Program-made: the position numbers and the translations under genes
Part shown: in pieces, positions 18,406 to 63,475 of the stretch
Position numbering within the stretch: the stretch's first letter is position 1
How the letters are laid out: each line of letters begins with the position of its first letter
Virus record (IMG/VR): IMGVR_UViG_2910942425_000008
Coordinates: 12,672-76,671 of that record
Direction: 5' to 3' (one strand)
Source of the DNA: a virus
Lineage: Duplodnaviria > Caudoviricetes
DNA: 64,000 nt
The notes under the pieces: model-generated
Database searches by the model: none
Seen by the model: the letters and a program-made list of their open reading frames with translations, nothing else
What the model was told of the DNA's origin: nothing

Positions 18406-18420
18406 ATTGGTTGTTTTTTT

Positions 18421-20614: not shown

Positions 20615-20615
20615 A

Positions 20616-20807
20616 TTACTTAAATTCTAATTGATTCTGTCCCCTTCTTTCAAGTTCGTCTTTGTATTGCATCAGAGCCTCTTTCACTCTTGTTTCGGTA
20701 CGCATCAGCCCCAACGGCAGGACGCCATGTAGCCGGTCCTCACACCGGGCTACTCCGTGTTGTAATTGTTCATTTGAGTAATCTTTGATTGTTTTCATAA
20801 TCTTCAA
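20616..20807 (-). CDS. Hypothetical protein
   Basis: 63 aa, ends QLEFK. Confidence 0.6.
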   Translation of the reverse strand: MKIMKTIKDYSNEQLQHGVARCEDRLHGVLPLGLMRTETRVKEALMQYKDELERRGQNQLEFK

Positions 20808-21669: not shown

Positions 21670-21863
21670 TTCATCAATTTATAACTATCCATATAATTGC
21701 CCACCCTGTACGGTTTCTTTCCCCGGGTGGCTGATATTGTTTCCAATACATGCAGCTCGTTTGCAATCCTGTAAAACTCAGGTATGCTCATCTCCGCCAT
21801 ATTGTGAGAAAGGAGATAGTTGTATATCTCCTCTATCCGGGATTGGGTCTATTGTTGGTTCAT
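21666..21863 (-). pseudogene. Small ORF with in-frame TAG at codon 5 (or a 44-aa ORF from 21800)
   Basis: MNQQ*TQSRIEEIYNYLLSHNMAEM...; overlaps both neighbouring genes. Confidence 0.4.
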
Positions 21864-22726: not shown

Positions 22727-22728
22727 AG

Positions 22729-24105: not shown

Positions 24106-24213
24106 TTTTAATACAAGTTCTTAACCGGGCCCGATTGTGGTTAATACTTATTTTCGTAACTGGTGGGAGACTCGACCTCCCACACAAATACCACCTCCAA
24201 ATGGGAGGATTAT

Positions 24214-24576
24214 TTACAGCCATTCGTCCAACTCTGCAAACTCAGAGATTAGTTTTTCGCGCCAATTTTCGATAATCCCATTTTCGTCAATGTCCATGAT
24301 GATATAGTCGCCATCCCATTCACCGCCCGGACACATAATTTCGGGCACATAGCCCTCTTTACGTATTATCTCAGATTTATCTTCATCCAGCAGGCAGTAT
24401 ATTCCGGCATCGCATACCTTGTAGTGTATAGAAGCTGTTTTGCCCTGCTCCCAATTTAGGATTTTGCCTTCATCAATATCTATTAGCGGCTTCCATCCGT
24501 CACCATCTTTACATGGTATGTTATCGCCATCTTCGGTATCCGGATTTCCATCATCTTTTCGTAACTTATCTTACAT
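24214..24576 (-). pseudogene. Conserved phage protein frame interrupted by TAA at codon 2
   Basis: ATG TAA then 118 open codons: ...DNIPCKDGDGWKPLIDIDEGKILNW...IHYKVCDAG...GDYIIMDIDENG. Confidence 0.55.
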
Positions 24577-25116
24577 TCAAACCAATTCATATTCTTTAAT
24601 TTTAATTTTATAATATTCTATCTGCTCTTTTATTTCTTCGGTCGTCATTTTCAGTGGTTTATTTCTTATCTCTAATAGTTGTTCATATCTCTCTATGCCA
24701 ATACGCATAGGAAGAGATAGCGAATATTCAGTAGTATTGCCGTGACGGTGTTGGTTGCAGGCGACACACTGACCGTGTACGTTGTCTTCGTTGAACCTTA
24801 GATTGGGATAAGCCCCGAGTGAGAAAAAATGCCCTGCATCGTATTTTCCTACTAAAGAACATCCACACGATATGCACGGCATACCTTTGTCTCTCAACCT
24901 GATATATTTATTGAATACCTTTTGCAGATCGTTTAGCCACTGCGAATGCGTTTTTAGCCGCTCTTTCGCCTTCGCTTTTTCCTTCGCCTTGTCTTTCTGC
25001 ACCTTGCTTTTCGCCTTGGTTGCTATACAAGAAAGGCATAGCCTCGATACGATTATGCCATTTCTGTATATGGGCTCAAAGTTGGTTTTGCACGATCGGC
25101 ATTTGATTACAACCAT
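24577..25116 (-). CDS. ninG: NinG/Rap-like recombination nuclease
   Basis: FNKYIRLRD...CISCG...DAGHF...LRFNEDNVHGQCVACN. Confidence 0.9.
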   Translation of the reverse strand: MVVIKCRSCKTNFEPIYRNGIIVSRLCLSCIATKAKSKVQKDKAKEKAKAKERLKTHSQWLNDLQKVFNKYIRLRDKGMPCISCGCSLVGKYDAGHFFSLGAYPNLRFNEDNVHGQCVACNQHRHGNTTEYSLSLPMRIGIERYEQLLEIRNKPLKMTTEEIKEQIEYYKIKIKEYELV

Positions 25117-25544
25117 TGTCTTTGTCTTTTCGTTTCTTCCTGAATATGTTCCAGAAACTTATCTTCGTTAGCTTCGGGCAGATAGATACCGGCTTCATTG
25201 GCGCTCCAATTCCTAAACCGGTCTATGGCATCTGTCATTTGTTTGGTATCTATTTCTGCTGAACTCCTTATTATTGTCACACTTCCCAGATAATCATCTT
25301 CACGCTCGTACAGGAATATATCAGGATTGCATAACTTCTTGAAGTATTCCTTTTTCACAAATTTGAGATTATTTCCTGTCTCTATGCAGAACCACGAAAT
25401 AATAAGGTGTAGATAGTTATTCTGCGATAATATCCGTTTCTCCCGCTTTTCTGTGAGGTCTACTTTCTTTTTTTTGTCAATCATGTATTGCACTCTGGTT
25501 AAGAAAGATTTTACCCCTGTTTCCGTTGTAAGATCGAAATACAT
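25107..25544 (-). CDS. NinB-like protein
   Basis: RILSQNNYLH...RSSAEIDTKQM. Confidence 0.7.
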   Translation of the reverse strand: MYFDLTTETGVKSFLTRVQYMIDKKKKVDLTEKREKRILSQNNYLHLIISWFCIETGNNLKFVKKEYFKKLCNPDIFLYEREDDYLGSVTIIRSSAEIDTKQMTDAIDRFRNWSANEAGIYLPEANEDKFLEHIQEETKRQRQWL

Positions 25545-25556
25545 AAGTCCAGATAA

Positions 25557-25925
25557 TTAGAAGGGCAAATCATCATCAGCCGGTGCGCTATTCCCCTGTG
25601 ACGTATTTTGCACCGATTGCGGCCTGCCGCCCAACAACTGCAAATTGTTTACAAACACACATTGGTCGGCGATGGCTTTGTTGTCTTTATTGATGTAGGC
25701 CGATGTGTAAGGCATGCCACTGATATACACCTGCTGGCCTTTCTTCAGGTAGTTGCCAAGCTTGTTGCTTTCGCCTACCAGCCTCAGGCATCGCACCCAG
25801 TAGGTCTTATTCTGTCCGTTACGCTTCTCGGTGTAAGCTATAGAGAACGAATAGTAATCTTTGCCGTTGATAGGCTTCGTTTCGGCATCTTGTCCGATAT
25901 TGCCTATGATTTCTAGTCTGTACAT
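25557..25925 (-). CDS. ssb: Single-stranded DNA-binding protein
   Basis: IIGNIGQDAE...LKKGQQVYISG...DDLPF tail; start 25925. Confidence 0.9.
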   Translation of the reverse strand: MYRLEIIGNIGQDAETKPINGKDYYSFSIAYTEKRNGQNKTYWVRCLRLVGESNKLGNYLKKGQQVYISGMPYTSAYINKDNKAIADQCVFVNNLQLLGGRPQSVQNTSQGNSAPADDDLPF

Positions 25926-25930
25926 GATTA

Positions 25931-26551
25931 TCAATATTTTACGTAATAGTTTTTTATTTGTTGTAATATAGTACATCTGCCCCTAATGCTGTTTATAAAT
26001 TCTTCGTTGCGAGGAATGCGAAACTCGATATATTCGTCAGGCGTTATATTTCTTTTGATATTTTCTTCGTCATCGTATGTCTGGACTTCGAGATAGCACA
26101 AGGTTGCAGCATCTAATTCTGAACAGAATAGCTGGTATTGAACTTGCTCATAATTATGCTTGTAGTGTTTCCGTATAAATTCAAGATATTCTTCTTCCGG
26201 AGATTCGCGATACATATTTATATCGAGATAGTCATTTGCAAAGACCGTTTTCAGCTCAATGAAATCAACAACTTTATTGTGTTCCACCTTCGCAAAATCT
26301 AGAGTCGCCCTGCAAACATCCATTTCTTTGCTCACCACTTTATATTGTGGCAGATATTCATCACTCAATGCCAAAAAGAAGCGGTCTTCGAGTATCGCTC
26401 CTGCCCGGAGCGCATTTATAGGGCTACGTTTTGCATTATAGTGTGGTATTTCATCCGAAACAAAGCGCCTCAATAGTTTTCTGTGTGACTCAGTAGTGAT
26501 GCCCGACATTAAAGCGACTACATCACCGCTACCTATATACATACTCCTCAT
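25931..26551 (-). CDS. YqaJ / lambda-exonuclease-like nuclease
   Basis: YIGSGDV, ATLDF, IELKT, QVQYQL; ATGA coupled to ERF stop at 26551. Confidence 0.7.
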   Translation of the reverse strand: MRSMYIGSGDVVALMSGITTESHRKLLRRFVSDEIPHYNAKRSPINALRAGAILEDRFFLALSDEYLPQYKVVSKEMDVCRATLDFAKVEHNKVVDFIELKTVFANDYLDINMYRESPEEEYLEFIRKHYKHNYEQVQYQLFCSELDAATLCYLEVQTYDDEENIKRNITPDEYIEFRIPRNEEFINSIRGRCTILQQIKNYYVKY

Positions 26552-27126
26552 ACCTTTTCCTTTATATGCCCACTTTTTACCCAAGCGTTATAAGTAGTTT
26601 CTATTTGCTTGTTCGTCAGGTCTTCCATAACACCAATATCATATCTTTTAAGAATGGTATTCAGGGCATTATTATTTGCAAGCATTACATCATATACAGC
26701 CTTTCGCTTGTCCGACAACACTTCTTCGGGTGTTCGATTTTCATGTTTTTCGCTGTCTATTTCCTTGGAGTCATCTATGCAGAATAATCCATTCAGGGCG
26801 TATTTGCGGGCGTACGAACTTGCCGAACCTGTTATCTGAGCTGCGTCCATCCCTTTCTTTGTTTCTTCCTCACGGGCATAGGCCTTGACTATCGCCGATT
26901 TACCTTTTTCATTAGTTAGAATTGCAGTAGCCTCTATGTATACCCTGCCGCCTACATCTTTGACTTCGTCCGATAAAACAAGTGTGCATTGCATTTCCTC
27001 TAAAAGGGGCTTAACTGCCTCCAAGATATCCTCACAACTGCGATAATTGTAATTGCCAAACTTGTTTAGCTGATTTTTGGGGGCTTTTAACCGAGATTGT
27101 ATTTTTATTAATTCTTCCATTGTCAT
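26548..27126 (-). CDS. erf: ERF-family single-strand annealing protein
   Basis: LKAPKNQLNKFGNYNYRSCEDILEAVKPLL...GSASSYARKYALNGLF. Confidence 0.9.
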   Translation of the reverse strand: MTMEELIKIQSRLKAPKNQLNKFGNYNYRSCEDILEAVKPLLEEMQCTLVLSDEVKDVGGRVYIEATAILTNEKGKSAIVKAYAREEETKKGMDAAQITGSASSYARKYALNGLFCIDDSKEIDSEKHENRTPEEVLSDKRKAVYDVMLANNNALNTILKRYDIGVMEDLTNKQIETTYNAWVKSGHIKEKV

Positions 27127-27133
27127 TATAATT

Positions 27134-27454
27134 TTAAGTGAACTGAAAACTTTTCTGGTTCCCGTTACCATATCTGATTTGTTTGATTGTTGCTTTGAAT
27201 GGAAAGTCATCTTTGTTTATCTGGTCTAAGTCATGTTTGATGTATTTGGAATCGGTAAAAAACTTACATTCCTTTCCATCAAATCTGACTTTAACAATGT
27301 ATCTGTTATCGCCATGCTGGGTCTTTATCCCGGCCTGAAAATCAATCACCTCTACCTCACAATTTAAGATGTCGCTAATAGACACTACCTGAACATCAAA
27401 TATGGCTTTACCGTCATCCAGTGGCTTTATGCCAAGTTCTGAGAACTTCTTCAT
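27134..27454 (-). CDS. RT-linked small beta-rich protein (candidate DGR accessory)
   Basis: 106 aa, overlaps the RT 3' end by 41 nt. Confidence 0.75.
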   Translation of the reverse strand: MKKFSELGIKPLDDGKAIFDVQVVSISDILNCEVEVIDFQAGIKTQHGDNRYIVKVRFDGKECKFFTDSKYIKHDLDQINKDDFPFKATIKQIRYGNGNQKSFQFT

Positions 27455-28427
27455 TTTTCACAACAGTTTTAATCAGGTTCAGCGAATTACAATATTTTGT
27501 CCAGCCTATCCACGCACAAATGGCTATCCGGTACTCTTTTGGTGTGATGTTTTTATACTTATTCAACTTCGCTATACGCCTGCAAAATTTCTTCTTGATG
27601 CGTTTGCGTAGCCGAGTGTGGGTATGGTAGAAAACATATCCGACAAAGTCGATACCGCGAGCTGTGACAGGAAATACTTGGAAATTATCTTTAAGTTCGA
27701 GTTTCAACCTGTCATTCAGATATTTCCCTATTTCTATCTGTAAGTCATGCAAATAGTTTTTATCATCGCTCAATATTACCATGTCGTCTGCGTACCTGTA
27801 ATAGTATTTTACTTGTTTCTCCTCTTTCAACCAGTGATCGAAATAAGACAGATACAGGTTAGCCAAAAATTGAGAAAGGTAATTCCCGATCGGCAAACCG
27901 GGTGCAGAGTTGATAATGTCATCCAAAAGGTTCAATAGCCGTGCATCCTTTATTTTCTTTCTGACTATTAATTTCATTACTTCGTGGTCAATAGATGGAT
28001 AGAACTTTCGTATGTCCATTTTCAGACAGTAACTTGTATTTTCACTGTCTTTTAAATCACGTTTGATGTGCTTTAATGCACCATGAATCCCCCTGCCTTT
28101 GATGCAGGAATAAGTATGCGAAATAAATACAGATGCCCATATCGGTTCTAATATATTCATTATGGTATGTTGCACAACCCTGTCGCGGAAAGGAAGCCGG
28201 TATATTATCCGTTCTTTCGGGTCGGTAATTGTAAATACATCATATTCCGATATCGTATAAGTTCCATTTATCAAATCGTCTTGAATCATTTGCATGTTTT
28301 CAATCAGATTGCTTTCGAATTGTTTTACACCATAAGATTTTCCTTTGCCTTTCCTCGCTTTGCTATAAGCCAGATAAAGGTTATCGGCGTCACAGATTTT
28401 ATCATATAAATTCCCAAATCGCTTCAT
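27414..28427 (-). CDS. DGR reverse transcriptase
   Basis: MKRFGNLY start, RDRVVQH, MDIRKFYPSI, GLPIGNYLSQ, YADD; no En domain. Confidence 0.95.
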   Translation of the reverse strand: MKRFGNLYDKICDADNLYLAYSKARKGKGKSYGVKQFESNLIENMQMIQDDLINGTYTISEYDVFTITDPKERIIYRLPFRDRVVQHTIMNILEPIWASVFISHTYSCIKGRGIHGALKHIKRDLKDSENTSYCLKMDIRKFYPSIDHEVMKLIVRKKIKDARLLNLLDDIINSAPGLPIGNYLSQFLANLYLSYFDHWLKEEKQVKYYYRYADDMVILSDDKNYLHDLQIEIGKYLNDRLKLELKDNFQVFPVTARGIDFVGYVFYHTHTRLRKRIKKKFCRRIAKLNKYKNITPKEYRIAICAWIGWTKYCNSLNLIKTVVKNEEVLRTWHKATG

Positions 28428-28533
28428 ATAGCCTTTGTTTCTAATCGGAGCCTTCGGTTTCCCTACCAGCACCTTTTGAATTGTTATTTTTCGCCAAGGG
28501 GCGAGGCCTTTGCCTTGATTTTTTATCTTTACA
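28428..28533 (-). ncRNA. DGR spacer (3' part of template RNA) between TR and RT
   Basis: Non-coding; hairpin TCGCC/GGCGA at 28491-28504. Confidence 0.55.
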
Positions 28534-28611
28534 TAGGTGGGAGCTGCTCCCTGCATTCGCATTCGTATTATCGTAGTTCGAGTTGTTGAACGTGAAGGCC
28601 GCAGGAGAGCC
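28534..28611 (-). repeat. DGR template repeat (TR)
   Basis: GGCTCTCCTGCGGCCTTCACGTTCAACAACTCGAACTACGATAATACGAATGCGAATGCAGGGAGCAGCTCCCACCTA; six AAY codons, 21 adenines. Confidence 0.95.
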
Positions 28612-28638
28612 GACTCTAAGGCAAACAGCCCTTTTTCA

Positions 28639-29034
28639 TTATTTCAATTGCACTGCTTCCCATATTTCAGGGAATGTTTTACCGATGTGGTCGGACGCTT
28701 CACGGCTCAAAACGCGAAGGCGGGAGCAGCTCCCCGCAACCGCAAACGTAAGATCGCAGCGCGAGAAGAAGAACGTGAAGGCCGCAGGAGACATCCAAAA
28801 CCACGGTGTATATTTCCATTGGTTATGATTATTCCAGTCTATTTCACCTAGTCCACATTCACGTTCAATCTTACGAGCTGCCTCTACTATTACTTTCGCA
28901 TTATAGCAGGCTTCTTCATGCTCTCTCATATCTTCCGGATAAAATGAAAAGTCAATATGAGGGCGGCCTGTTTCGGCATAAGCATTATCTAATGTTTTTA
29001 GCCTTTCTTCGAGTAGTTGTTTTAAGTTTTTCAT
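28639..29034 (-). CDS. DGR target protein 1 (131 aa)
   Basis: Contains VR1; KYTPWF...SPAAF...SRL. Confidence 0.9.
   Translation of the reverse strand: MKNLKQLLEERLKTLDNAYAETGRPHIDFSFYPEDMREHEEACYNAKVIVEAARKIERECGLGEIDWNNHNQWKYTPWFWMSPAAFTFFFSRCDLTFAVAGSCSRLRVLSREASDHIGKTFPEIWEAVQLK
28717..28791 (-). repeat. Variable repeat VR1
   Basis: 75 bp, 17 mismatches to TR, all at TR adenines. Confidence 0.95.
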
Positions 29035-29064
29035 TGTGATAACTATTTTTCTTGATGTTATAAA

Positions 29065-29523
29065 TTATGATTCCAGATATTCACGATAAAAATCAATATG
29101 CTTTGTGCCTACGATTTTAGAGAGTTTCTCGCTTTTTAGGGCGAGGCGGGAGCCGCTCCCCGCAAACGCAAGCGAATTAACGCAGTTCGAGCCGCGGAAC
29201 GCGAAGGCCGCAGGAGAGCCTTGTGTCAGGAATCGCGGAAAATACCTCCACTTTGAACTATTATAGATATCCATTTTCTCCCCTTCGTTGTATGCCTCGG
29301 TCATCACAACGCATCGGTAGTATTTACGGAAGTGGTCGCGTAACCGCTCAGGTAGCTCTGTAAATTCAGGCGTATCTGGTAGTCCTGTTTCGGCGAGCAT
29401 ATCTTCCCATGTGTTGATACGCTCTGTGATGTCTTTGCCGAAAGTTGATTCTAATGCAGACTTCATACTGTCAGACGATTTGTATAATCCTCTGAGTTTC
29501 TGTTCTAATGATTTTGTTTCCAT
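29065..29523 (-). CDS. DGR target protein 2 (152 aa)
   Basis: Contains VR2; RYFPRF...GSPAAF...GSRL. Confidence 0.9.
   Translation of the reverse strand: METKSLEQKLRGLYKSSDSMKSALESTFGKDITERINTWEDMLAETGLPDTPEFTELPERLRDHFRKYYRCVVMTEAYNEGEKMDIYNSSKWRYFPRFLTQGSPAAFAFRGSNCVNSLAFAGSGSRLALKSEKLSKIVGTKHIDFYREYLES
29143..29220 (-). repeat. Variable repeat VR2
   Basis: 78 bp, 16 mismatches to TR, all at TR adenines. Confidence 0.95.
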
Positions 29524-29876
29524 AAGTTATTATTGGTTTAAATTGGTAATGATTCTAAAATTGCCAGTCCCTTCTAGTCTAACAAGCGCGTATCTGTTTC
29601 GACCTGTATCCGGCGTTTATCGGGATTCTGTCCCCCTGAAACCGCCAAAGGTTATTACATCGAATTGTACGAACAGGGGTATATCGTATGTACATGGTTT
29701 GGTTTTTCACCGCGGCACCATAAGCATAGCTTTTAGCAGTACATATTTTATCTTTTTTCTTGTCGCTTTCTTTTAAGAACTCACATATCGATTTAGAGAG
29801 AGAAAGCTTTTCAATACGTCAAAGAACTTGTCTTTGTGGCTACCCCTAACCGAATAGGGACGGTCTTACCTGTAGC

Positions 29877-30044
29877 CTAATATCTTTTTATTGTTGGTAC
29901 ATCATAGGCTATCTGCTCACTCAGTTTGCTCTGAATTCTATTGCATTTGTGGCAGCTGTGAAAGCATAGCCAGATGGAGATGAATAGTATAAGCCCAAGC
30001 GCTATATCAAAAAATTCGATCCGGGGTAGTCTCTTTTTTTTCAT
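29877..30044 (-). CDS. Small single-pass membrane protein (55 aa)
   Basis: MKKKRLPRIEFFDIALGLILFISIWLCF... Confidence 0.5.
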   Translation of the reverse strand: MKKKRLPRIEFFDIALGLILFISIWLCFHSCHKCNRIQSKLSEQIAYDVPTIKRY

Positions 30045-42107: not shown

Positions 42108-44447
42108 TTAATTGTAATTGAAATATAAGTCCAGGTTCACGAGTTTAGCCGTTACCCATTTTTCGATGCGTTCAATCGAATTGTAAAAGCCGAGCGCATT
42201 GGGTACGTTATCGTATAGCTTTGTTAAAGGCGCATTGCCCGTTGATGGATCTATACATTCAAAAAGGAAAGTTTGGTATTTGCATTTATCGCCTACATTG
42301 TAAGCAGTTGCGTTGTTATACTCTGTGCCGTTATCCCACTCATCGCCGACAAGCTTCCAATATGCTTCATTAATATAGGATTTGCGATATGAAGGTGTTT
42401 CGCCCCATTTCTCAAACTCCTTTTTATACATGTCCGAACCTATCATTTCAACCCACTCATTAAAGAGATTGACAACGTTTTCAGCCGTAAATATCCCTTT
42501 ATCCCTTAACTCCTTATAGCGGGCTTGAATTTCGGGTTTATATAATTGGTTAAGCCAATAAGACGGCAAACGGTTTTCGAGCCCAAGAATAGCGCTCAAA
42601 CTGTTACGTTTTACCATATTGCCCCGCCAGTGCATACCGAACACACTATCATGGTCGTAAAAAGTAGGACACCATTTAAGCCCATCCCATGTACACCATA
42701 TCCAATTTTTGGCGAAACCGTCAAAATTGTAGACAAATTGAGCGTGTACGAAATAATCAATAAAGAAAGGCACATCGAAGTATTGTTCAAATTCGGCTTT
42801 GGTAGTAGACCCCGAAAAAGTAGGCAAGGCATTACTGAGCCTCACAATATTATCTTTCACCTCTTTTGAAAAAACGTCCGTATTTGACAGTTCTTTCGGA
42901 TAGTCGCCGTTATACTCATTTCCGTTTATGTCTATCAAGTCTTTCGGGTTGCGTACTTCAAATTCAGACCATACGATATTGTTTTGCCAAAATGTACTTA
43001 AAGATAAATTGCCGTCCAGAATGATATGTTTTGAATCACCTTTATTGGCTGCATAATTATCGCGATGCTTCTTAAGGTTGAGAGCATACAGGCCGTAAAA
43101 TTCTTCATTGACGTATATAACAACGGGAAAGCCATCAGGATGGCATAAAGCCTCGTTTACTATATCAGCTTTCAATATGCCTGTGCCATCGTATGCAGTT
43201 GCAGACGGGTAAACGCTTTGATAAGGCTTTCTTTCCCCAACCGGGCGTGTTTGGTACATTTGTTCGCATAGCTTGTAACTTACGTTACATTGCCCCCTGA
43301 AAGCGTCTATATAATATTTCTTTATATGGAAGCTGTCTTGTGCTACCCAGTTCCCAAACTTGATTTTACAGTCGGTAAAGTCTACAGATAGGTTTTTTAC
43401 CATGTATGCCATTGACGATGTGCCCTGTGCATTCAGAATAATGGGCTTCCTGAAATAGTTACCGTCCTTATCCCAATATTCCAATATTGCGTGTATATCG
43501 TCAAATTTACCCGATGGCATCCTTGAAACAATAAGGTTTATCCGCGCCGCAACTCTCGGTATAGGTATGGCAATATCGGATTGTTCCGACCAGTCGCCTG
43601 TACCTTTGCCCGGAGAAAAACCGCTGTCTATTAAATCCTGTTTAAGTTGGGTTATGGCTTTGACAGATAGTTTTATCCTGTCATTTATGGTTGCTGTTTC
43701 AGTCTCAAAGGTACATTCCCACTTTGTACCGTCCTTACGGCGATACGATAAAATCCTGTTTTCAGCGTCCAGCGTCACTTCTATTCGCCCCTCGTTATCG
43801 GTTACAACGGATAGTATTCTCGATATTGCGCCGATAGCGGCGTTCACGGCTGTGTCGGATATAGGTTTGCCCGTGTTGCCTAATACGTTTACAACATCTG
43901 TATAGTTAAGTTTTAGCTTAAGGGCTGCTTTGGTATCTTCGGGCATGCCTTTGGCGACATAGATTTCTCCGTTACGGCGGAAACCGCAAAGGATAGCCGT
44001 TGATGTGTCTGTGATGGCGAAAAGATACTCACTATTCGATATAATGGATAATTGAGCATACACGGCGGGTATATCTTCGGATATTGCTACACCTGTATCA
44101 GACCACGAATCGTTTTTATACTCCCATATAGTGCCAGTATCTAAAATACCCGCTTTGTCGCCCGCTTGTGGTTGTCGCACCGTACCGCTAGCAATATCCG
44201 CCTCCAACTTTTCAAGCGTGGAAAAATAGCCGAGATTGTGTTTGTTTTCTTCTTTTACGGCTTCCAAATCCGCATGAGAGGCTTTATTTTGTTCTAAATC
44301 ATTGAGGGCATCGGTTAGACCGAGTATTTGCGTTTGCGGTAATCTTTCCGATTTATGCCAAAAAGACTTCCATGAATCCGCAAATTGCTTTTCTGTAGGC
44401 TCTTTTCCTTTTTTATAATATGATAATATTGTAAGTAAATCTATCAT
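42108..44447 (-). CDS. Tail fibre-like protein with CotH-type kinase domain
   Basis: N-terminal PT..QF..W.SFWHK fibre anchor; DGFPVVIY...YGLY, FDGFAKN...FYDHDSVFG. Confidence 0.75.
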   Translation of the reverse strand: MIDLLTILSYYKKGKEPTEKQFADSWKSFWHKSERLPQTQILGLTDALNDLEQNKASHADLEAVKEENKHNLGYFSTLEKLEADIASGTVRQPQAGDKAGILDTGTIWEYKNDSWSDTGVAISEDIPAVYAQLSIISNSEYLFAITDTSTAILCGFRRNGEIYVAKGMPEDTKAALKLKLNYTDVVNVLGNTGKPISDTAVNAAIGAISRILSVVTDNEGRIEVTLDAENRILSYRRKDGTKWECTFETETATINDRIKLSVKAITQLKQDLIDSGFSPGKGTGDWSEQSDIAIPIPRVAARINLIVSRMPSGKFDDIHAILEYWDKDGNYFRKPIILNAQGTSSMAYMVKNLSVDFTDCKIKFGNWVAQDSFHIKKYYIDAFRGQCNVSYKLCEQMYQTRPVGERKPYQSVYPSATAYDGTGILKADIVNEALCHPDGFPVVIYVNEEFYGLYALNLKKHRDNYAANKGDSKHIILDGNLSLSTFWQNNIVWSEFEVRNPKDLIDINGNEYNGDYPKELSNTDVFSKEVKDNIVRLSNALPTFSGSTTKAEFEQYFDVPFFIDYFVHAQFVYNFDGFAKNWIWCTWDGLKWCPTFYDHDSVFGMHWRGNMVKRNSLSAILGLENRLPSYWLNQLYKPEIQARYKELRDKGIFTAENVVNLFNEWVEMIGSDMYKKEFEKWGETPSYRKSYINEAYWKLVGDEWDNGTEYNNATAYNVGDKCKYQTFLFECIDPSTGNAPLTKLYDNVPNALGFYNSIERIEKWVTAKLVNLDLYFNYN

Positions 44448-54536: not shown

Positions 54537-55658
54537 TCACGCAGGTTCAACACCATATTCAGCTTTGTATAAAGCTTTGAATTGATCAGGATTTTCAAGC
54601 TGCATTTTTTCCAAAGCTTTAGGATCGTTTGTCTGATACCAGTTCCAGTCTTTCGAAGTATTTGCACCAGGCGTTTCCTTGCCTTCATGTTTGATCAGGC
54701 TGGTGATGTCAGTTGTTACAACTGCACCTGGTGTTTGTGGTTTCAGGATTGCAGCCAGTGTATCGACACCGCTGGTTTCACCAATCTTTTCATAAGTAGT
54801 ACGCAGATCACCTGCAGGAACTTTTGCATTATCAAGCATGGCTTTGATTGTGGCTGCTGCTTTAGCTTTAGCTTCACCTTCCAGTGTTGTAATGCGAGTG
54901 TTCAGACCTTCAAATTTCTTTGTCACTGCAGCAACTACATCAGCTTCTGAACTTTCTGCTGTAATTCCTTCCAATTGGAGTGCTGCAACCAATAATGTTA
55001 CTAATGGATTCATTTGTACATTGTTTTTATTGTTTTTGTTATCTAAAAAGGCAGCAAAGCGGTTGTACATCGCTTCTGCTGTCAAACCTTGTGAAATTTC
55101 GTCATCCAGGATTTTAATGTTTTTGGCTGTTGCCGGCAGTTTCTTTTTCGCAAAGCCATACTGTACCATTTCATCTGCATTCAGCCAGTGATCCTTTCCA
55201 TCAAACCATTTGGCTTTTATTTCTTCAGCTGTCATGTTGGTACGTTCCGAAACTCGTTTAATAAAGCTACCTTCCATATCACGCAGTAGTTTGGCAGTAG
55301 CAAGGTGTGCATCTGCATCCCCATCATCATAGCCTGATGGGCGGTGTACCATACCGAAACCATTTTCTGCAATAAATACATTTTCTATTGCAGGAAGCAT
55401 GAAGAAACCCATTGATGCAGCCACACCATCTATGATGATATTTACTTTCAGGTTGGTACGCTGCAAGGCATTGTACATAACATTGCCTTCAAATACTGAA
55501 CCACCATAACAGTGCATCCTGATGGTTACCTCTGTATAGCCTTTTGTTTCAAAACCGTCCAGCAATGAACTGAAACTGTTACCATCAGCAAAAAAGCTAC
55601 CTATATTGCCGTATAGTTTAGCTTCTACATGCTTCTTATTAATTTCTTTAATCTGCAT
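54537..55658 (-). CDS. ClpP-like head maturation protease / scaffold
   Basis: MHCYGGSVFEG, DGVAASMG, MVHRPSG, WLNADE; C-terminal scaffold. Confidence 0.85.
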   Translation of the reverse strand: MQIKEINKKHVEAKLYGNIGSFFADGNSFSSLLDGFETKGYTEVTIRMHCYGGSVFEGNVMYNALQRTNLKVNIIIDGVAASMGFFMLPAIENVFIAENGFGMVHRPSGYDDGDADAHLATAKLLRDMEGSFIKRVSERTNMTAEEIKAKWFDGKDHWLNADEMVQYGFAKKKLPATAKNIKILDDEISQGLTAEAMYNRFAAFLDNKNNKNNVQMNPLVTLLVAALQLEGITAESSEADVVAAVTKKFEGLNTRITTLEGEAKAKAAATIKAMLDNAKVPAGDLRTTYEKIGETSGVDTLAAILKPQTPGAVVTTDITSLIKHEGKETPGANTSKDWNWYQTNDPKALEKMQLENPDQFKALYKAEYGVEPA

Positions 55659-55843: not shown

Positions 55844-56353
55844 ATGAAAAAAATTGTACTGATGGCTAAGAAAATAGCAGAAAAGACAAAAAAGAAAGAG
55901 GCAAGCCCAAGTGAAAAGAAGCATGCTGAGTGGCTTTATGTAGAAAAAGGTTTATCACCGCAAGCAATTGCTGATGAACTGGAACGCAATATTAAAACCA
56001 TTTATGATTGGCGGGATAAGTATGGCTGGGATGAAACCAAACTATTGTTTGACACAGGACCGACACAGTTGAAAAAAGAACTGTTGCAAGCTGCTATGCG
56101 CATCATGAAAGGTGAAGTAAGAAAGGACGCTGCAGGTAACGAAATAAAGGAAATTGATGCTGATTCATTAAGCAAAATAATGAAAGGCTATGATTACATA
56201 AGTAAGAAAGCCAGCCCTGCAGTTTGCCGTGATATCCTGGTTGAATTGGACAACTTTGTCAGTGAACGTGAACCAAGGCTTGCTGCTGAAATGACACAGT
56301 ATCACAGAATGTTTTTAGTGTACAAAATAGGGCAGGAAAATGGCAGCAACTAA
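55844..56353 (+). CDS. Terminase small subunit (Mu-like)
   Basis: HTH AEWLYVEKGLSPQAIADEL...TIYDWRDKYGW. Confidence 0.75.
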   Translation: MKKIVLMAKKIAEKTKKKEASPSEKKHAEWLYVEKGLSPQAIADELERNIKTIYDWRDKYGWDETKLLFDTGPTQLKKELLQAAMRIMKGEVRKDAAGNEIKEIDADSLSKIMKGYDYISKKASPAVCRDILVELDNFVSEREPRLAAEMTQYHRMFLVYKIGQENGSN

Positions 56354-57893
56354 TTTCGATAAGATATTAAGATCGTATGATGAAAGCTGTAAGAGGATTC
56401 AGAAAGCAGCTTACTTTGATATACACGAAACGCTTGAACAAAAATATAAGCGTATCAAGCATCTTGAAGCTGATTTTGACCGATGGTGGAAACATCATTT
56501 CAAACACTATGCAACTTGTGAAAGCGCACCTTTTCATCTGAAAATAGATGATATAGTAATCAAGAATAAGATTCTGAAGCTACTGAATGATGCTTTTCGT
56601 GGATCAGCTAAATCTGTCAGAACTGTTGTAGGATTGTCCTTATACCTGGCATTGGTTAAAAAAGAAATGTGGTTCATGCTTCTTATCGGTCAAACAGAAG
56701 ATAAAGCCATAGAATTATTAGCCGATATCCAGGCTGAACTGAAGCATAACCAACGGCTTATTAATGATTACGGTGAACAATTTCAACATGGTGATTGGGC
56801 TGAAGGTAATTTTACAACAAAAGATGGTGTAAAATTCATGGCTTTGGGTTTCGGACAGGATCCGCGTGGTTTGCGAAATGGTGAACACAGGCCTGACTTA
56901 ATTGTAGTGGATGATATTGATACACTGAAAAGGTGTAACAATGATCGCCTGATACGTGAAGCTGTAGACTACATTACTGGCACGCTTTGGGGTTGTTTCG
57001 ACAAAGGCAATGAAAGGTTTATTTTTAACAATAACCTGATACACAAAAATTCAATCATGGCAAAGCTGGTTGAATTATCCGTTATTGCCAACAAACAGGC
57101 CAAAGAACAAAACCTGCCTAAAACATTCTTTCATGTCAAAACAAAGGCTATCCTGGATGAAGATTTCACACCGTCCTGGCCTGGCAAATATACGGCTCAA
57201 TACTGGAAGGAAAAGAGAGCATCAACACCTTTCAGGTCGTGGATGCGTGAATATATGTGTACACCGTTGGTTGATGGTACTATATTCAATCCTGAATGGA
57301 TACAATATAAAAGAATACTGCCATTACACAGGTATGACAGCCTGGTATTGTATGGTGACTTATCCTATAAAGACAAAGGAGACTACAAAGCACTTGTGTT
57401 GGTTGGAAAGATCGGGCGTGAATTTCACATCATAGATGCTTTTGTAAGGCAAACTTCACGTGCTGCATGTGCTGTGTGGTTGTATGATTTGTATGAAAGG
57501 CTGAAACTGAACAAATACAATATCTCATACCTGATTGAAGGCCTTTTTGCTCAGGATGAATTTATAAATGATTTCGACCAGGAAGGTGATCAGCGTGGTT
57601 ACTATGTGCCAGTAGTTGCAGACAAACAAAGCAAAGGCAATAAATATGATCGTATTGAAAGCATGGCAGGTTTCTTTGAACGCCTGAATGTATTCTTTAA
57701 TGAAGCTTTGAAAAACAGTACCGATATCATCAACCTGATTGATCAGTTACTGGCATTTGAAAAAGGGAGTGGTGCAAACGATGACGGGCCTGATGCTTTA
57801 CAATCTGCCATTGCTGAACTGAACAAAGCGACTTTTATAGAAAAATTTGAAATAATAACAACACCCAGAACACAGGGTAAAAACCGCTTTTAA
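56340..57893 (+). CDS. Terminase large subunit (Mu-like)
   Basis: FRGSAKS, RPDLIVVDDID, YGDLSY, DDGPDAL. Confidence 0.9.
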   Translation: MAATNFDKILRSYDESCKRIQKAAYFDIHETLEQKYKRIKHLEADFDRWWKHHFKHYATCESAPFHLKIDDIVIKNKILKLLNDAFRGSAKSVRTVVGLSLYLALVKKEMWFMLLIGQTEDKAIELLADIQAELKHNQRLINDYGEQFQHGDWAEGNFTTKDGVKFMALGFGQDPRGLRNGEHRPDLIVVDDIDTLKRCNNDRLIREAVDYITGTLWGCFDKGNERFIFNNNLIHKNSIMAKLVELSVIANKQAKEQNLPKTFFHVKTKAILDEDFTPSWPGKYTAQYWKEKRASTPFRSWMREYMCTPLVDGTIFNPEWIQYKRILPLHRYDSLVLYGDLSYKDKGDYKALVLVGKIGREFHIIDAFVRQTSRAACAVWLYDLYERLKLNKYNISYLIEGLFAQDEFINDFDQEGDQRGYYVPVVADKQSKGNKYDRIESMAGFFERLNVFFNEALKNSTDIINLIDQLLAFEKGSGANDDGPDALQSAIAELNKATFIEKFEIITTPRTQGKNRF

Positions 57894-57895
57894 TT

Positions 57896-58339
57896 ATGCC
57901 AAGATTTATACTTGAATCCGATTACGATATGCAGATTAAGCAGGAAATAATACGCCTACTTACTGCACAAGAATTTTATCAAAGTGCTAAACTGGTTAGA
58001 GCCGAAAATACAGCCATCAGGCAGATACGCAACCGGATTGCCAAAAGATATGACTGTGACAAAATATTCACAGCAGTAATACCGGGTGACCCCGATACGC
58101 GTGATCAATGGATTGTAACCATAACCATTGATATAGCACTGTATCACCTGTACAGCCAGACAGGCATGAAAGATATTCCACAACACAGGCAGGATCGTTA
58201 CCAGGATGCACTTGACTGGCTTAAAGATGTCGGTAATGGTGACACCATCCCGGAACTGCCGGCTTTGGTCGATGAAGATGGCAATGAATACAGCGAGGTA
58301 ATAATTAACAGCAGGCCTCAAGAAAACCAACGATGGTGA
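57896..58339 (+). CDS. Mu gp36-like head-tail protein (DUF1320)
   Basis: DIALYHL...RYQDALDWLK.V..G. Confidence 0.8.
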   Translation: MPRFILESDYDMQIKQEIIRLLTAQEFYQSAKLVRAENTAIRQIRNRIAKRYDCDKIFTAVIPGDPDTRDQWIVTITIDIALYHLYSQTGMKDIPQHRQDRYQDALDWLKDVGNGDTIPELPALVDEDGNEYSEVIINSRPQENQRW

Positions 58340-58429
58340 GTGTAGTGGATTCAATCTATAATTAAAAACACTTTAAAACAGCTTTACTGCTTTGCAAAAT
58401 TTTTAATTTTTAATTCTTAATTTTTTCAA

Positions 58430-59635
58430 ATGGGTTTATTTAACTTTTTAAGAAAATCACCAGTTGCTGCTACTGCAGATAAACAAAAACTGGTTAATGA
58501 TATAGTTTTACAGATCGCACAGGAATTTCAGGATCGAAGCAGAAAGAATATTACCAAATGGCGTGATTCAAACACAGCTGCTGAAAGCCCTGATGATCCA
58601 CGCTGGTACTTGCTTCAGGACTTGATTGATGATCTGATACTGGATGCACACCTTGCATCTGTTATTGATGTGCGTAAATCTGCAACGCTCAATCATAGAT
58701 TTTATGTCCGGGATAAGAAAACACAAGAAACGCTGGATGAACAAACCGACTTTCTGAACAAGCAATGGTTTTATGAGTTTCTTGATAGCGCGCTTGATTC
58801 TGTATTTCGGAAATATACCATTGCACAATTTTTCAGGGTAAACGACAAACCGATATTTAAGCTTATTCCACGCAGAAATATTTGTCCTCAATTGGGGCGT
58901 ATGTACATTGAAGTATCTGGAAGTGCTTTTGTCAATTACAATGAAGTACCCAATATAATCGAAATCATGCACACCAGTAAGTTTGGTTTGGTCAATGATG
59001 TTATTCCCAATGTTATCTGGAAACGTGATGCGCTGCAGGCCTATGCTGAATTTTCTGAACGGTTTGGCAAACCGTTGATTACAGCCACAACCAATAATAA
59101 AGCTGAAGCTCCACGCATATCCAAATCACTGGTAGAACTGGGTGATTCTGGTACTGGTGTACTTCCAACAGGCACTACAATCACAGTGCATGATCTGGCA
59201 AACGCTGGTAATCCTGAAAAAACCTACATTGAGAATGCAAAGCTTCAGGATAACCAGGTAAGCAAACGCTTCGTTGGTTCAACTACAATTTTAGATGAAG
59301 GTGCAAACCGTTCACAAACACAGGTACATATTGAAACGCTTGATGATAAGATTGCACAATCAGACAGGCGTAATATGATTTTCTGTGTCAATGATCAGCT
59401 TTTTCCGATTCTCAACAGTTTAGGCTTTCCGTTTAATCCGGATACGATGGAATTTGTATTTGACGAAACAGAAGATTTGACACTCAACCAGCAATGGGAA
59501 ATAACCAAAGGTGCAATTGAAGCAGGTTATGAATTGGATATTGACGAACTGGTTAAAACATTCAATTTACCTATCACTGGCAAAAAACAGGTACAAAACC
59601 CATTAAATACAGGCTTTTCTGCAAATTTTCAGTAA
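58430..59635 (+). CDS. Portal protein (Mu gp29 / DUF935)
   Basis: LDAHLASVI..RK, WKR...Y.EFSERFGKP, NRSQTQVH. Confidence 0.85.
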   Translation: MGLFNFLRKSPVAATADKQKLVNDIVLQIAQEFQDRSRKNITKWRDSNTAAESPDDPRWYLLQDLIDDLILDAHLASVIDVRKSATLNHRFYVRDKKTQETLDEQTDFLNKQWFYEFLDSALDSVFRKYTIAQFFRVNDKPIFKLIPRRNICPQLGRMYIEVSGSAFVNYNEVPNIIEIMHTSKFGLVNDVIPNVIWKRDALQAYAEFSERFGKPLITATTNNKAEAPRISKSLVELGDSGTGVLPTGTTITVHDLANAGNPEKTYIENAKLQDNQVSKRFVGSTTILDEGANRSQTQVHIETLDDKIAQSDRRNMIFCVNDQLFPILNSLGFPFNPDTMEFVFDETEDLTLNQQWEITKGAIEAGYELDIDELVKTFNLPITGKKQVQNPLNTGFSANFQ

Positions 59636-59784
59636 GGGAACAAGTAAGGGCTGGCTATGTTCCCAGATTATACGTTGATGATTGCCCTCACTGCAAAGGA
59701 ACGCACCCAACAGCAGAAGCAGATTTACCATCAGGTTACATCGATGAACTGGACAAACTAAGATCATCCATCATTGAAAGGGCT

Positions 59785-60942
59785 ATGAAGGGTGAAGATC
59801 TGGACAGCTTGCTTGACCTTACTGTAAAAACGCTGTCAGATCGTGTGATTGATTCCTACCAGGTTGCTGCAGATTATACGACGCCTGATGCTGAAATGTT
59901 GACGCGCCTGGTGCGTGATGTATGGCATTTCAGTGGTGCGAAAAGCTATCAGGAAATGCGGGATTTAACGCTGTTACTGAAAGACGACAACGGCAAGTTG
60001 CGTGAGTTTGAAGATTTCAAACAAGCGGCTGAAGGTATCATTGACAAATACAATGAAACCTGGTTAAGAACCGAGTACAATTTTGCGGTTTCTTCATCGC
60101 AAAATGCTGCACGATGGGTTGAATTTGAAAAAGAAGCTGGCATTATACCAAACCTGAAATATCAGACTGTTGGTGACGATCATGTACGTGCATCACACCA
60201 GGTACTGGATGGTATTATACGGCCTGTTAATGATAGCTTCTGGATTACCCATTACCCGCCAAACGGTTGGGGCTGCAGATGCGAAGTAGTGCAATCACTC
60301 GAAGGTTACGGAAAAGTAACACCTGATAAAGATATTCCTGTTGTGGATATACCCAAAATGTTTAAAACAAACCTGGCTAAAACAGGCCTGATTTATCCTA
60401 AAAACCATCCCTATTACAATGGTGTACCAAAAGCCGAAATAAGCAAAGCACTGGCATATCTACCACCGGAAAATACATTTATTGATATAAAGGTAAATGG
60501 ATGCCATTTCGAAATACACCCGTTGCATGGAGAAAAAGAGTTAGGCAAAAACATTAATGCAGTTACAACATTACTGAAAAAAGAACCGGATGCAAAAGTA
60601 AAACTGATGCCTATTATTTCTGAAAATAATATGGATGCAAGAAAGAAATATTACCCAAAAGAGTATTTGGATAAGTTTCCAACAAAAAATGCTGATATTC
60701 TTTACAACAAGAAAGTTGCAGAAATAGAAATCCCGTCTGGCAGTAAACGTTCAATTCAGCATGCTGTCGAACATGGTATAGCCCAGGCAGACACAGTATT
60801 TATTTGCATACCAGATAGTATGGATATAAATGATGCCTATCGCATTGTAAATGGACATCTAAAGCACTACCCTAACAACAATAGTGATATATGGTTGATA
60901 AATAATAACGAAAAAGTACAGTATAAAAGGCAAAAGCGATGA
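59785..60942 (+). CDS. MuF (Mu gp30) head protein with C-terminal CdiA-C-like nuclease-fold domain; frame open from 59557
   Basis: WLRTEYN, LKYQTVGDDHVRASH, YPPNGWGCRC; C-terminal KNADIL..VAEIE..SIQHAV..G..QAD. Confidence 0.85.
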   Translation: MKGEDLDSLLDLTVKTLSDRVIDSYQVAADYTTPDAEMLTRLVRDVWHFSGAKSYQEMRDLTLLLKDDNGKLREFEDFKQAAEGIIDKYNETWLRTEYNFAVSSSQNAARWVEFEKEAGIIPNLKYQTVGDDHVRASHQVLDGIIRPVNDSFWITHYPPNGWGCRCEVVQSLEGYGKVTPDKDIPVVDIPKMFKTNLAKTGLIYPKNHPYYNGVPKAEISKALAYLPPENTFIDIKVNGCHFEIHPLHGEKELGKNINAVTTLLKKEPDAKVKLMPIISENNMDARKKYYPKEYLDKFPTKNADILYNKKVAEIEIPSGSKRSIQHAVEHGIAQADTVFICIPDSMDINDAYRIVNGHLKHYPNNNSDIWLINNNEKVQYKRQKR

Positions 60943-61032: not shown

Positions 61033-62904
61033 ATGGCTGGATTAGCTAAATTACAATTACTTATAGAAATTAAAGATAAACTGAATGTCGGTTTAAATAA
61101 GGCTAAAAAAAAGATTGAACGTGCAACTGGAAATATGCAGAATAAATTAAAAGCATTCAGCATAGAAAACACCAAATTATTTGGAGCAATTAAAGACGAA
61201 GTTCCTGGTGTTGCCAGAGCTGTTACACTTTTATCCAATCCCTATGTTTTGGCTACTGCTGCAGTTGTAGCATTAGCTGGAGCTGTCACCATGTGTACAT
61301 TAAAGGCCAATGAGTGGCATGAAAAGATGGCTGAAATAAACGTCACAGCCGAACTTTCAAAAGACAAGCTTGGTAAATTGTCTGATAAGCTACTTGATAT
61401 AGGAGGCCGCAATGTTGCACCACTGGAAGAAGTACCCAAAGCTTTTAACCGTATCATATCTGCAGGTCTAAGTGTAAATGATTCATTGGCCACACTTGAA
61501 CCGACTTTACGTGCTGCAAAAGCGGGTTTTACTGACATTGAAATAGCCGCTAGTGCAGCAACTTCTGTAATGATGGCTACTGGTTACGACGCAAAACGCG
61601 TATATGATATCTTGTTTGAAACTGTAAAAGAAGGGAATGCTGAATTTAAGGACATTGCACAATATCTGCCAAAAGTCATACCGCTAGCAAAAAATGTCGG
61701 TTACGAACTCGAACAAGTTGCTGGCGCTTATGCAATGCTTACAGGCCGTTTAAGTACAGAACAATCCACAACAGCATTGCAGGGTATTATGAGAGCCTTA
61801 TCATCACAGCGTGTTGCCATAGGTCAAATTGATAAAGCTACTGGTAAATATGTATCCGGGTTTAAATCAATCGGTATTGATGTTTTCGATCCAACAACAA
61901 AGAAAATAAAACCTATCCTTCAGATTGTTACAGAACTAAATCAGAAAATGGCAGGCCTGTCTGATAAACAACGTATGATTCAGTTTGATAAGTTAGGCCT
62001 TGATCAGATGGGTTCATTAGGTTTTTCTTCTTTAATGCAGGATATACCAGCTTTACAGAAAGCTATTGATGCAACAACAAATTCTGCTGGTTCACTTGAA
62101 AAAGCCTATGCTGATTCATTAACACCAATGGAAAGCTGGAAGATCATACAAAACCAGATTAAAGTTGAAATGATTAAGATAGGCGAATTGTTCTTACCTA
62201 TTGTTTCAGCCATTGGTAATAAAATTCTGGGAATCATACAATATTGGAAAGACTTATATAATAATTCTCAAATGTTCAGGGATTTATTGAGCGGCATAGG
62301 CGCTGTGTTTGAATGGTTGTGGAATGTTTCAACAATAGGTTTCAACCTTGTTATTAATTTAGTCAAAAACACAATATCAAATGTGTCTATACTTCTATCC
62401 AAGTTTGAGAACTGGATAACAAAAGTAACTGGTGTTCAGTTCAGCTTTAAGAAATTGTATAATACAATACGCCCTTATCTTGTCTGGTTAAAAGAATTTC
62501 TTACTGAAATAGGTTCATTGATGTATGATGTATTTACATTTAATGTAAATGGAGTTAAAGACAAAATCAGCAACTTTAAGTTGCCTGATATTGGCGAAAT
62601 CAAACAAAGGGTTGTGGTTGAATCAGCTGACGACGATGGTGACTTTTCCGGTGTGCCTACTGGTTCAGGGCCAACCAGTCCAGATGCAATAATGCCTGAT
62701 AATACGAATTCATCCATTGCCGATGGAGCAAGAGGTATTAAAGGCAACAGCCAGACAAAGAATATAACTATCAATATAGATAGTTTTATCAAAAGTTTTT
62801 CACCAACACACCAATCTTTCAATAATATGAGTACAGACGAATTTGAACGCAAAATGACCGAAGTATTTATGCGTGTGGTAAGAAGTGCTGAAACCTCAAT
62901 GTAA
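61033..62904 (+). CDS. Tape measure protein (TP901-like core)
   Basis: 623 aa Ala-rich helical; MAEINVT, AGFTD, amphipathic W-rich C-terminus. Confidence 0.85.
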   Translation: MAGLAKLQLLIEIKDKLNVGLNKAKKKIERATGNMQNKLKAFSIENTKLFGAIKDEVPGVARAVTLLSNPYVLATAAVVALAGAVTMCTLKANEWHEKMAEINVTAELSKDKLGKLSDKLLDIGGRNVAPLEEVPKAFNRIISAGLSVNDSLATLEPTLRAAKAGFTDIEIAASAATSVMMATGYDAKRVYDILFETVKEGNAEFKDIAQYLPKVIPLAKNVGYELEQVAGAYAMLTGRLSTEQSTTALQGIMRALSSQRVAIGQIDKATGKYVSGFKSIGIDVFDPTTKKIKPILQIVTELNQKMAGLSDKQRMIQFDKLGLDQMGSLGFSSLMQDIPALQKAIDATTNSAGSLEKAYADSLTPMESWKIIQNQIKVEMIKIGELFLPIVSAIGNKILGIIQYWKDLYNNSQMFRDLLSGIGAVFEWLWNVSTIGFNLVINLVKNTISNVSILLSKFENWITKVTGVQFSFKKLYNTIRPYLVWLKEFLTEIGSLMYDVFTFNVNGVKDKISNFKLPDIGEIKQRVVVESADDDGDFSGVPTGSGPTSPDAIMPDNTNSSIADGARGIKGNSQTKNITINIDSFIKSFSPTHQSFNNMSTDEFERKMTEVFMRVVRSAETSM

Positions 62905-62911
62905 ATTGCTT

Positions 62912-63475
62912 ATGAGTAACAAGGTAGATATATCGGATTTTACACGCAGGATTGATTCTATTTTGGAAACTTACAGAAGGTTACCGCCCGAAATAGCAAC
63001 TATTGCCGAGAACTTCAGTAAAGAGCGCTTCAGGGATCAGGCTTGGCTGGATGAAACCAAACATAAATGGAAACCACGAAAAAATAAGCGTCCCGGAAGA
63101 AGAAGCCAGACATTACTGGTTGATACCGGCAGATTGAAAAAGAGTATCAGGAAGATAAAGGCTACAACAGAACAAGTGATTATTGGCACTGATGTACCAT
63201 ATGCTGAAATACACAACGAAGGCGGTGAAATCAATAAAACGGTGAATGTGAAATCTCATACGATAAAGTCGCATAGGAGAAAAGCATACACCAGGAATCG
63301 GAACGGACGTGCAGAACGTATAAAGGCTCAAACAATCAAAGATTATACGGTCAAGGCTCATACCCGAAAAATGAATTTAAAGATACCTTCCAGGCGTTTC
63401 ATAGGTAACAGCTATACGCTTGCACGAAGAATAGAATTACACGTAACAGCACGCTTTGTCCGTGCTTTAAAATAA
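62912..63475 (+). CDS. Virion morphogenesis protein (Mu gpG-like)
   Basis: FRDQAW...LLVDTGRLKKSI...GTDVPYAEIHNEGG...IPSRRFIG. Confidence 0.85.
   Translation: MSNKVDISDFTRRIDSILETYRRLPPEIATIAENFSKERFRDQAWLDETKHKWKPRKNKRPGRRSQTLLVDTGRLKKSIRKIKATTEQVIIGTDVPYAEIHNEGGEINKTVNVKSHTIKSHRRKAYTRNRNGRAERIKAQTIKDYTVKAHTRKMNLKIPSRRFIGNSYTLARRIELHVTARFVRALK

Follow-up and report, generated by a model that had tools for sequence, protein, structure and literature searches.

Programmed frameshifting in phages is known mainly from the tail chaperone gene pair and a few capsid genes, among them T7 gene 10A/10B, and in E. coli the dnaX gene makes its tau and gamma products by frameshifting at A_AAA_AAG with a stem-loop. 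For the tail assembly chaperones, a -1 frameshift joins G and GT in most long-tailed phages, lambda included (Levin et al. 1993; Xu, Hendrix and Duda 2004, as cited in PMC3483164 and PMC7911831), and a frameshift in the major head protein gene of Lactobacillus phage A2 is cited in PMC10885494 from Garcia et al. 2004. Portal and MuF proteins are linked in other ways: in SPP1, the MuF protein gp7 binds the portal (gp6) and is present in few copies per head (PMC6316719, PMC5576092), MuF proteins may end in a toxin domain, as the MuF polymorphic toxins do (Jamet et al. 2017, PMC5576092), and in Microbacterium phage clusters EA3/EA5/EA8 and EB the portal and MuF genes are fused (PMC7302621). Here we describe the portal-MuF junction of a Caudoviricetes virus, IMG/VR record IMGVR_UViG_2910942425_000008, within a stretch of 64,000 nucleotides (nt) covering positions 12,672 to 76,671 of that record, hereafter the window. 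From comparative sequence evidence, this junction very probably carries a selected site of programmed -1 ribosomal frameshifting, with a portal-MuF fusion of 837 amino acids (aa) as its product.

The portal gene (58430-59635, + strand) encodes 401 aa and gives a full-length match to Portal_Mu (PF06074; 184.7 bits, residues 63-380, profile positions 1-336 of 336) as well as a match to the portal family phrog_113. The gene directly downstream matches Phage_Mu_F (PF04233) at 54.3 bits against a cut-off of 29.6, with the MuF domain at approximately 60028-60288, and phrog_35074 matches the window portal and the window MuF alike. The portal gene ends in ...GCA AAT TTT CAG TAA, which contains the slippery heptamer A_AAT_TTT (59623-59629, + strand) in the X_XXY_YYZ phase of the portal frame. 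A 6-nt spacer made up of the last portal codon CAG and the stop TAA at 59633-59635 (59630-59635, + strand) separates it from a stem-loop, GGGAACA.../...TGTTCCC (59636-59664, + strand), that is a putative stimulator. The MuF frame is exactly -1 relative to the portal frame and is open from 59608, the upstream stop being TAA at 59605-59607. Its N-terminal segment (59629-59784, + strand; SVREQVRAGYVPRLYVDDCPHCKGTHP...) shows homology to MuF N-termini and contains no ATG, GTG or TTG in the 51 codons, CPHC included, of 59632-59784; the remainder of MuF (59785-60942, + strand) begins at ATG 59785, which is the start chosen by the open reading frame (ORF) caller. A -1 shift at the heptamer is predicted to yield 400 + 437 = 837 aa with the junction ...SANF|SVREQVR..., so that the fusion would be marked by the junction peptide QVQNPLNTGFSANFSVR and the zero-frame portal by the C-terminal peptide QVQNPLNTGFSANFQ.

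An earlier sequence-only reading of the window had proposed such a fusion of approximately 837 aa. It placed the heptamer and 6-nt spacer at the portal end as given above, a stem of GGGAAC (59636-59641) and GTTCCC (59659-59664), and the complementary motifs AGGGC (59647-59651) and GCCCT (59684-59688), and it described a -1 MuF frame that is open across the site with 51 start-less codons before 59785. All of these bases and frames read as it described them and the computed product has the size it gave, while its core proposal of a -1 shift is supported by our comparison of 100 junction clusters. Its further suggestions, that the fusion is a minority product and that MuF is an injected effector, go beyond what this comparison shows.

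For this comparison, junction DNA from viral contigs, metagenomes, GTDB genomes (one per species; 80 Bacteroidota genomes) and GenBank phages was examined by script. Junctions were collapsed at ≥90% identity over 120 nt and an upstream ORF of at least 300 codons was required, which gave 100 clusters from Bacteroidota phages and prophages with portal identity to the window down to approximately 21%. As controls we used 608 ORF ends from the same loci, seeking the heptamer in their last 12 codons and, for the junctions, inside the open -1 overlap. We found that MuF lies in the -1 frame in 95 of the 100 junction clusters. An in-phase X_XXY_YYZ heptamer, whose conservation at portal-MuF junctions the earlier reading had put forward as a check, is present in 93/100 clusters compared to 65/608 control ORF ends, and it stands exactly one codon ahead of the stop in 76/100 clusters compared to 7/608 controls. 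With this one-codon spacing, class 1 (A_AAT_TTT/C, the class of the window) comprises 35 clusters from Dysgonomonas, Proteiniphilum, Limibacterium, Flavobacterium shii and other hosts; class 2 (T_TTT_TTC, with T_TTT_TTT in two) comprises 40 clusters from Prevotellaceae, Muribaculaceae, Bacteroidaceae, Chitinophagaceae and other hosts. A_AAA_AAR is found in a few clusters and in Winogradskyella phage Peternella. Two contigs that carry the Bacteroidota-type cassette, L115 and L169, are filed under Rickettsiales and Holosporaceae metagenome-assembled genomes, placements that are probably binning errors.

The heptamers are constrained at synonymous positions. In class 1, the codon 5' of the heptamer encodes Ala, Gly, Arg, Ser, Glu or Lys and has A as its third base in 35/35 clusters, and the Asn codon is AAT in 35/35, compared to a background of 48% elsewhere in the same portal genes (AAT:AAC 900:955). 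In class 2, the codon 5' of the heptamer encodes eight different amino acids, its third base is T in all 40 clusters, and TTT likewise follows as the next codon in 40/40 (background approximately 50%). Judged by this codon usage, a conserved C-terminal peptide cannot account for the constraint at the heptamer. Among four close relatives, invariant columns did not rise to a sharp peak at the junction, and we did not use this profile as evidence.

The start-less segment was compared with other MuF proteins. An extended MuF search returned 280 relatives, mostly from Bacteroidales phages and prophages, and those with long called N-termini align to the 51 codons of the window with the consensus M..(0-10 residues)..LYxxxCPHCxGxHPxAExxLPxDY. 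Approximately 25 of the closest clusters (65-81% identity) are called at 381-400 aa, and on these, too, gene callers default to a downstream Met. When the 156 nt after the portal stop were compared between the window and L001, a 76%-identical relative, the differences numbered 10, 2 and 3 at MuF-frame codon positions 3, 2 and 1, respectively. Since the segment is homologous to MuF N-termini and its differences are biased toward third positions, the 51 start-less codons are, on this alignment evidence, genuine coding sequence.

These data also bear on whether MuF is simply translated on its own, either from ATG 59785 or from a non-canonical codon within 59632-59784, while the heptamer and hairpin serve mRNA stability, pausing or coupling. 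We consider this explanation improbable. ATG 59785 does exist and is used by gene callers (P0002, 385 aa), an ATG, GTG or TTG is found near the junction in some relatives, and Mu and Hankyphage use ordinary starts. However, the 51 codons upstream of ATG 59785 are conserved protein sequence, and the Met itself is not conserved, as the ATG is absent in the wider family and in L050 (66% identity), where 88 codons 3' of the portal stop lack a start codon. Moreover, 21/35 class 1 clusters have no ATG, GTG or TTG in the MuF frame between the upstream stop and the LY..C motif, and a role in stability or pausing would leave unexplained both the heptamer, kept in phase down to its synonymous positions, and the -1 frame at 95/100 junctions.

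In the class 1 clusters that do have a start, an ATG 20 nt past the stop is the usual one; it lies within the 3' arm of the stem (giving "MVVS" N-termini), and sister loci carry AAG or GTG at the same position. This ATG, together with the way the portal stop abuts the start of MuF coding, is what termination-reinitiation has in its favor, whereby ribosomes would terminate at TAA 59633 and then resume close by in the MuF frame with no need for a canonical start. On the other hand, the window offers no ATG, GTG or TTG for 51 codons, and reinitiation requires no slippery heptamer. The -1-frame peptide is also conserved from the slip site itself, upstream of the stop (KFSV..), and in class 2 the conserved -1-frame peptide FFRLSPxDYxGLH starts at the slip site. 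We therefore regard reinitiation as very improbable, more so than an independent start.

The break in frame could in principle also stem from RNA polymerase slippage, a sequencing or assembly error, or a pseudogene, and together we rate these as the least probable of the explanations considered. Homopolymer runs at the junction in other lineages (A7-A10, T6-T7) would suit polymerase slippage, but the A3T4 of the window is not a long enough homopolymer run. Since the same frame arrangement is shared by approximately 95 independent assemblies, assembly error is excluded; contigs of related phages from three public runs also span the site with no insertion or deletion listed there. In public sequencing runs, the best share of the window sequence was 0.14 or less, and contigs from four runs represent relatives at approximately 90% identity. 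The sole contig from an RNA library ends at 59538, 5' of the slip site, and the runs are silent on expression and habitat.

In the window, the stem has 7 contiguous pairs, or 10 with a bulge, and the folding energy of the hairpin (59634-59666) is -12.5 kcal/mol (z -2.9), a value matched by 0/200 shuffles. The hairpin starts 5-6 nt 3' of the heptamer in nearly all relatives, and the 60 nt that follow the heptamer have a mean minimum free energy of -16.7 in class 1 and -22.3 in class 2, compared to -9.8 for random 60-mers of the same loci. The arms themselves vary: we counted 27 distinct 5' arms, each with a matching 3' arm, including GGGAACA/TGTTCCC, GGAAACAACC/GGTTGTTTCC, GGGAATAGCC/GGCTATTCCC, GCCCCTC/GAGGGGC and GCCCCAC/GTGGGGC. 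For cognate arms, the pairing energy is -14.9 kcal/mol (class 1) and -15.9 kcal/mol (class 2), compared to -8.6 and -11.1 kcal/mol for non-cognate arms, with 0/5000 permutations as good. In the stem, the structure conservation that the sequence-only reading had asked about is thus seen as covarying arms. The compensatory change in class 2 alters the encoded Ser...Glu to Thr...Val and looks RNA-driven. In plain and model-based alignments, 70-72% of cells pair, a value that was not reached in 500 shuffles, and double-sided changes occur in 25-32 cells compared to approximately 11-16 expected (for example, 28 compared to 12.4), with 0/500 shuffles as high. RNAalifold, applied to the MAFFT alignment, found no more than 4 base pairs because the stems occupy two registers with bulges. 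A covariance-model alignment left this register problem in place, and we relied on per-sequence folds and on the test of cognate against non-cognate arms. The class 1 covariance model (R1) gave 40 matches in 596 kb, all at portal-MuF junctions.

The sequence-only reading had further suggested that the loop AGGGC (59647-59651) pairs with GCCCT (59684-59688, + strand) in an H-type pseudoknot. The complementary bases are present, but covariation does not support the helix: at 29 aligned junctions its pairing is 73.1% compared to 74.0% in shuffles (420/500 as high), and no informative double changes were found among them. The two strands correspond to a conserved loop motif and to Cys-Pro codons (GCCC), both of which are fixed by coding. 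Since pairing equals the shuffle level and is not accompanied by compensatory changes, we dropped the pseudoknot as a supported feature and regard it as a candidate at most.

Portal and MuF also occur as natural in-frame fusions. Single ORFs of 802-935 aa combine Portal_Mu with Phage_Mu_F (plus CdiA_C or PBECR2; P0122-P0134, and one from the Algivirga pacifica genome), and the "portal" of Porphyromonas gingivalis phage006a_EM3 (BK068089) is an 852-aa portal-MuF fusion. In the in-frame fusions L181-L183, L122, L125, L128 and L142, we found an in-phase heptamer at the domain boundary, after which the -1 frame closes within 1-30 codons. The hairpin is also kept in L181 (2736-2800), L182 (2724-2790) and L183 (2359-2420), the last being phage006a_EM3. 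Going by their reading frames, a shift in these genes would yield plain portal, which is the reverse of the polarity in the window. Since the heptamer is kept in the in-frame fusions, the same cassette seems to set the ratio of portal to portal-MuF in either polarity. In L181 (2742-2830) and L182 (2730-2810), the short -1 frame after the heptamer encodes LYE..CGC, which resembles the MuF N-terminus, and then reaches a stop, while the zero frame continues into the MuF body. Either two overlapping frames are maintained in these genes or a second frame change lies downstream.

Together, the phase-conserved heptamer, the fixed spacer, the covarying arms, the conserved -1 peptide, the missing starts in most sister lineages and the natural in-frame fusions form the basis for reading the window junction as a frameshift site. 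Under this reading, ribosomes on the portal mRNA would arrive at A_AAT_TTT, their P site occupied by tRNA-Asn and their A site by tRNA-Phe, and would pause there, held by the hairpin 6 nt downstream and perhaps also by the stop one codon ahead. Some of them would then move one base backward, re-pairing from AAU to AAA and from UUU to UUU, and go on reading in the MuF frame, giving two products, the plain 401-aa portal and the 837-aa portal-MuF chain. Since the portal C-terminus faces the head interior, MuF and its variable C-terminal domain would be placed inside the procapsid at the portal vertex. The MuF copy number would be set by the efficiency of frameshifting, and MuF would need neither a start codon of its own nor a separate binding step. 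We infer from the junction that ribosomes shift here with some efficiency, that both forms are assembled into one dodecamer and that MuF may later be released by the head protease.

How MuF might be freed is suggested by Mu, in which the last 124 residues of the gp29 portal are removed by the head protease (PMC11915804). Since the window portal is approximately 110 residues shorter than that of Mu, MuF would be attached roughly where the cleavable tail of Mu begins. An effector tethered to the portal would need to be cut loose before injection, and by analogy it is conceivable that the ClpP-type head protease of the window (54537-55658, on the strand opposite to the head module) releases MuF. 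More broadly, the heptamer and hairpin may be a ratio-setting device of many Bacteroidota Mu-like phages, used in both polarities so that the shift either makes or ends the fusion. A few MuF copies, with any toxin domain, would be loaded into the head through the portal tether and freed by the head protease where Mu trims its portal tail, so that they could exit together with the DNA. Such recoding would be without precedent in a portal gene, and the counting of a minor internal head protein would be solved at the level of translation. We hold this wider proposal tentatively and judge its chances as somewhat short of even.

Several observations weigh against the frameshift reading. Its support is wholly comparative. 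After a slip on A_AAU_UUU, the P-site tRNA-Asn would have a third-position mismatch. In a 66-nt context, the window fold is no better than shuffles (z 0.19), so that this single sequence proves little and the case rests on the approximately 100 other junctions. Among these, the stems fall in two registers, 3' partners slid by -1 score about equally and per-pair counts are noisy. ATG 59785 could still give a truncated 385-aa MuF in this phage, and 14/35 class 1 lineages have some start codon near the junction and may use independent initiation alongside the shift. Lastly, some relatives lack the signal: in Hankyphage p00 the two genes overlap as ATGgTGA, in Flavobacterium phages FPSV-S1 and pippi8-1 the MuF ATG lies 7 nt past the portal stop in another frame, and Mu gene F has its own ribosome binding site. 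Given these ordinary starts, frameshifting would be a lineage feature and not universal to Mu-type heads.

The junction belongs to a Mu-like head module on the + strand that occupies the right end of the window, within a prophage. Upstream of the portal gene lie a TerS-like gene (55844-56353, + strand), the large terminase (56340-57893, + strand) and a Mu gp36-type adaptor (57896-58339, + strand), and downstream of MuF lie a tape-measure-like gene (61033-62904, + strand) and a Mu G-like gene (62885-63475, + strand). The tail genes, like the protease, are on the strand opposite to the head module. The C-terminal 153 aa of the window MuF have no Pfam match at E<0.05, and thus no toxin domain recognized by Pfam, and CdiA_C (PF18451) is present in full-length MuF relatives of the window protein. 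The adaptor and portal genes are in the same frame, and the 90-nt AT-rich gap between them (58340-58429; tttttaatttttaattcttaatttttt) may be a promoter or leader of the portal-MuF message. The tape-measure-like gene encodes a 623-aa protein with matches to PhageMin_Tail and tape-measure profiles, and its position between MuF and the Mu G-like gene is unusual. In the tail and baseplate gene region of this prophage, a 779-aa protein (42108-44447, - strand) has a CotH kinase domain (PF08757, E 3e-17). The GC content steps from approximately 0.31-0.36 up to 0.39-0.445 over 18001-30000 and back at the flanks, which suggests a further inserted element or an operon with a separate origin and has no bearing on the frameshift site.

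According to the sequence-only reading, such a junction is not known to have been described, and our literature searches, whose coverage left out most subscription journals, likewise found no report of recoding in a portal gene, although they did return in-frame portal-MuF and MuF-toxin fusions. Portals are not mentioned in the PRFect paper, and none of the GenBank records inspected annotates a joined coding sequence at the portal-MuF junction. The frameshift mechanism itself is of a known type, and the gene pair, the broad conservation and the use in both polarities are, as far as can be told, new. If the frameshift reading is true, the portal gene would hold a second recoding site of tailed phages, equal in conservation to the one already known, and hundreds of Bacteroidota phage and prophage genomes would need re-annotation, as their MuF starts are now wrong, truncated or start-less. 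It would also explain the low-copy delivery of MuF and fused toxins to the head interior. The diverse slippery sites and stimulators at these junctions would further serve as a natural collection for studies of frameshifting in the Bacteroidota, which initiate translation differently from E. coli. The same reading bears on the packaging of MuF-linked toxins of gut Bacteroidales, such as Bxa (PMC11699363).

Like that of the tail chaperone pair G/GT, as described in the papers that cite the original work, the proposed -1 shift at the portal-MuF junction is conserved and close to the 3' end of a structural gene, would extend that gene into the ORF behind it and would keep two products at a set ratio, and in both systems the slippery sequence varies by lineage while its position is kept. 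The two differ in that the genes here encode the portal and an internal head protein, a different part of the virion, that the downstream partner stands elsewhere as a separate gene with initiation of its own, and that the stop stands one codon past the heptamer and is followed by a covarying hairpin. As in E. coli dnaX, a canonical bacterial heptamer, a short spacer and a stem-loop would set the ratio of long to short product. However, the dnaX shift leads to the short product, whereas the shift in the window would lead to the long one; the dnaX polarity is instead found in the related in-frame portal-MuF genes L181-L183, L122, L125, L128 and L142. The junction resembles T7 10A/10B and, as far as the citing paper describes it, phage A2 in that the -1 shift would occur where a head gene ends and would give a minor, C-terminally extended subunit able to co-assemble with the major form, but where those capsid proteins gain a short tail, the portal would gain an entire second protein of 437 aa. 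The in-frame fusions of Microbacterium clusters EA3/EA5/EA8 and EB (PMC7302621) and of phage006a_EM3 unite the same two proteins in the same order in one chain, and there every subunit is fused unless shifted or cleaved, whereas in the window the plain portal would be the default and the fusion would need recoding. Finally, as in SPP1 gp6/gp7 and the MuF toxins, the MuF gene comes just after the portal gene, and MuF would enter the head in few copies by way of the portal, possibly with a C-terminal toxin. Unlike the non-covalent binding of gp7 to gp6, the link between portal and MuF would here be covalent and made by translation.

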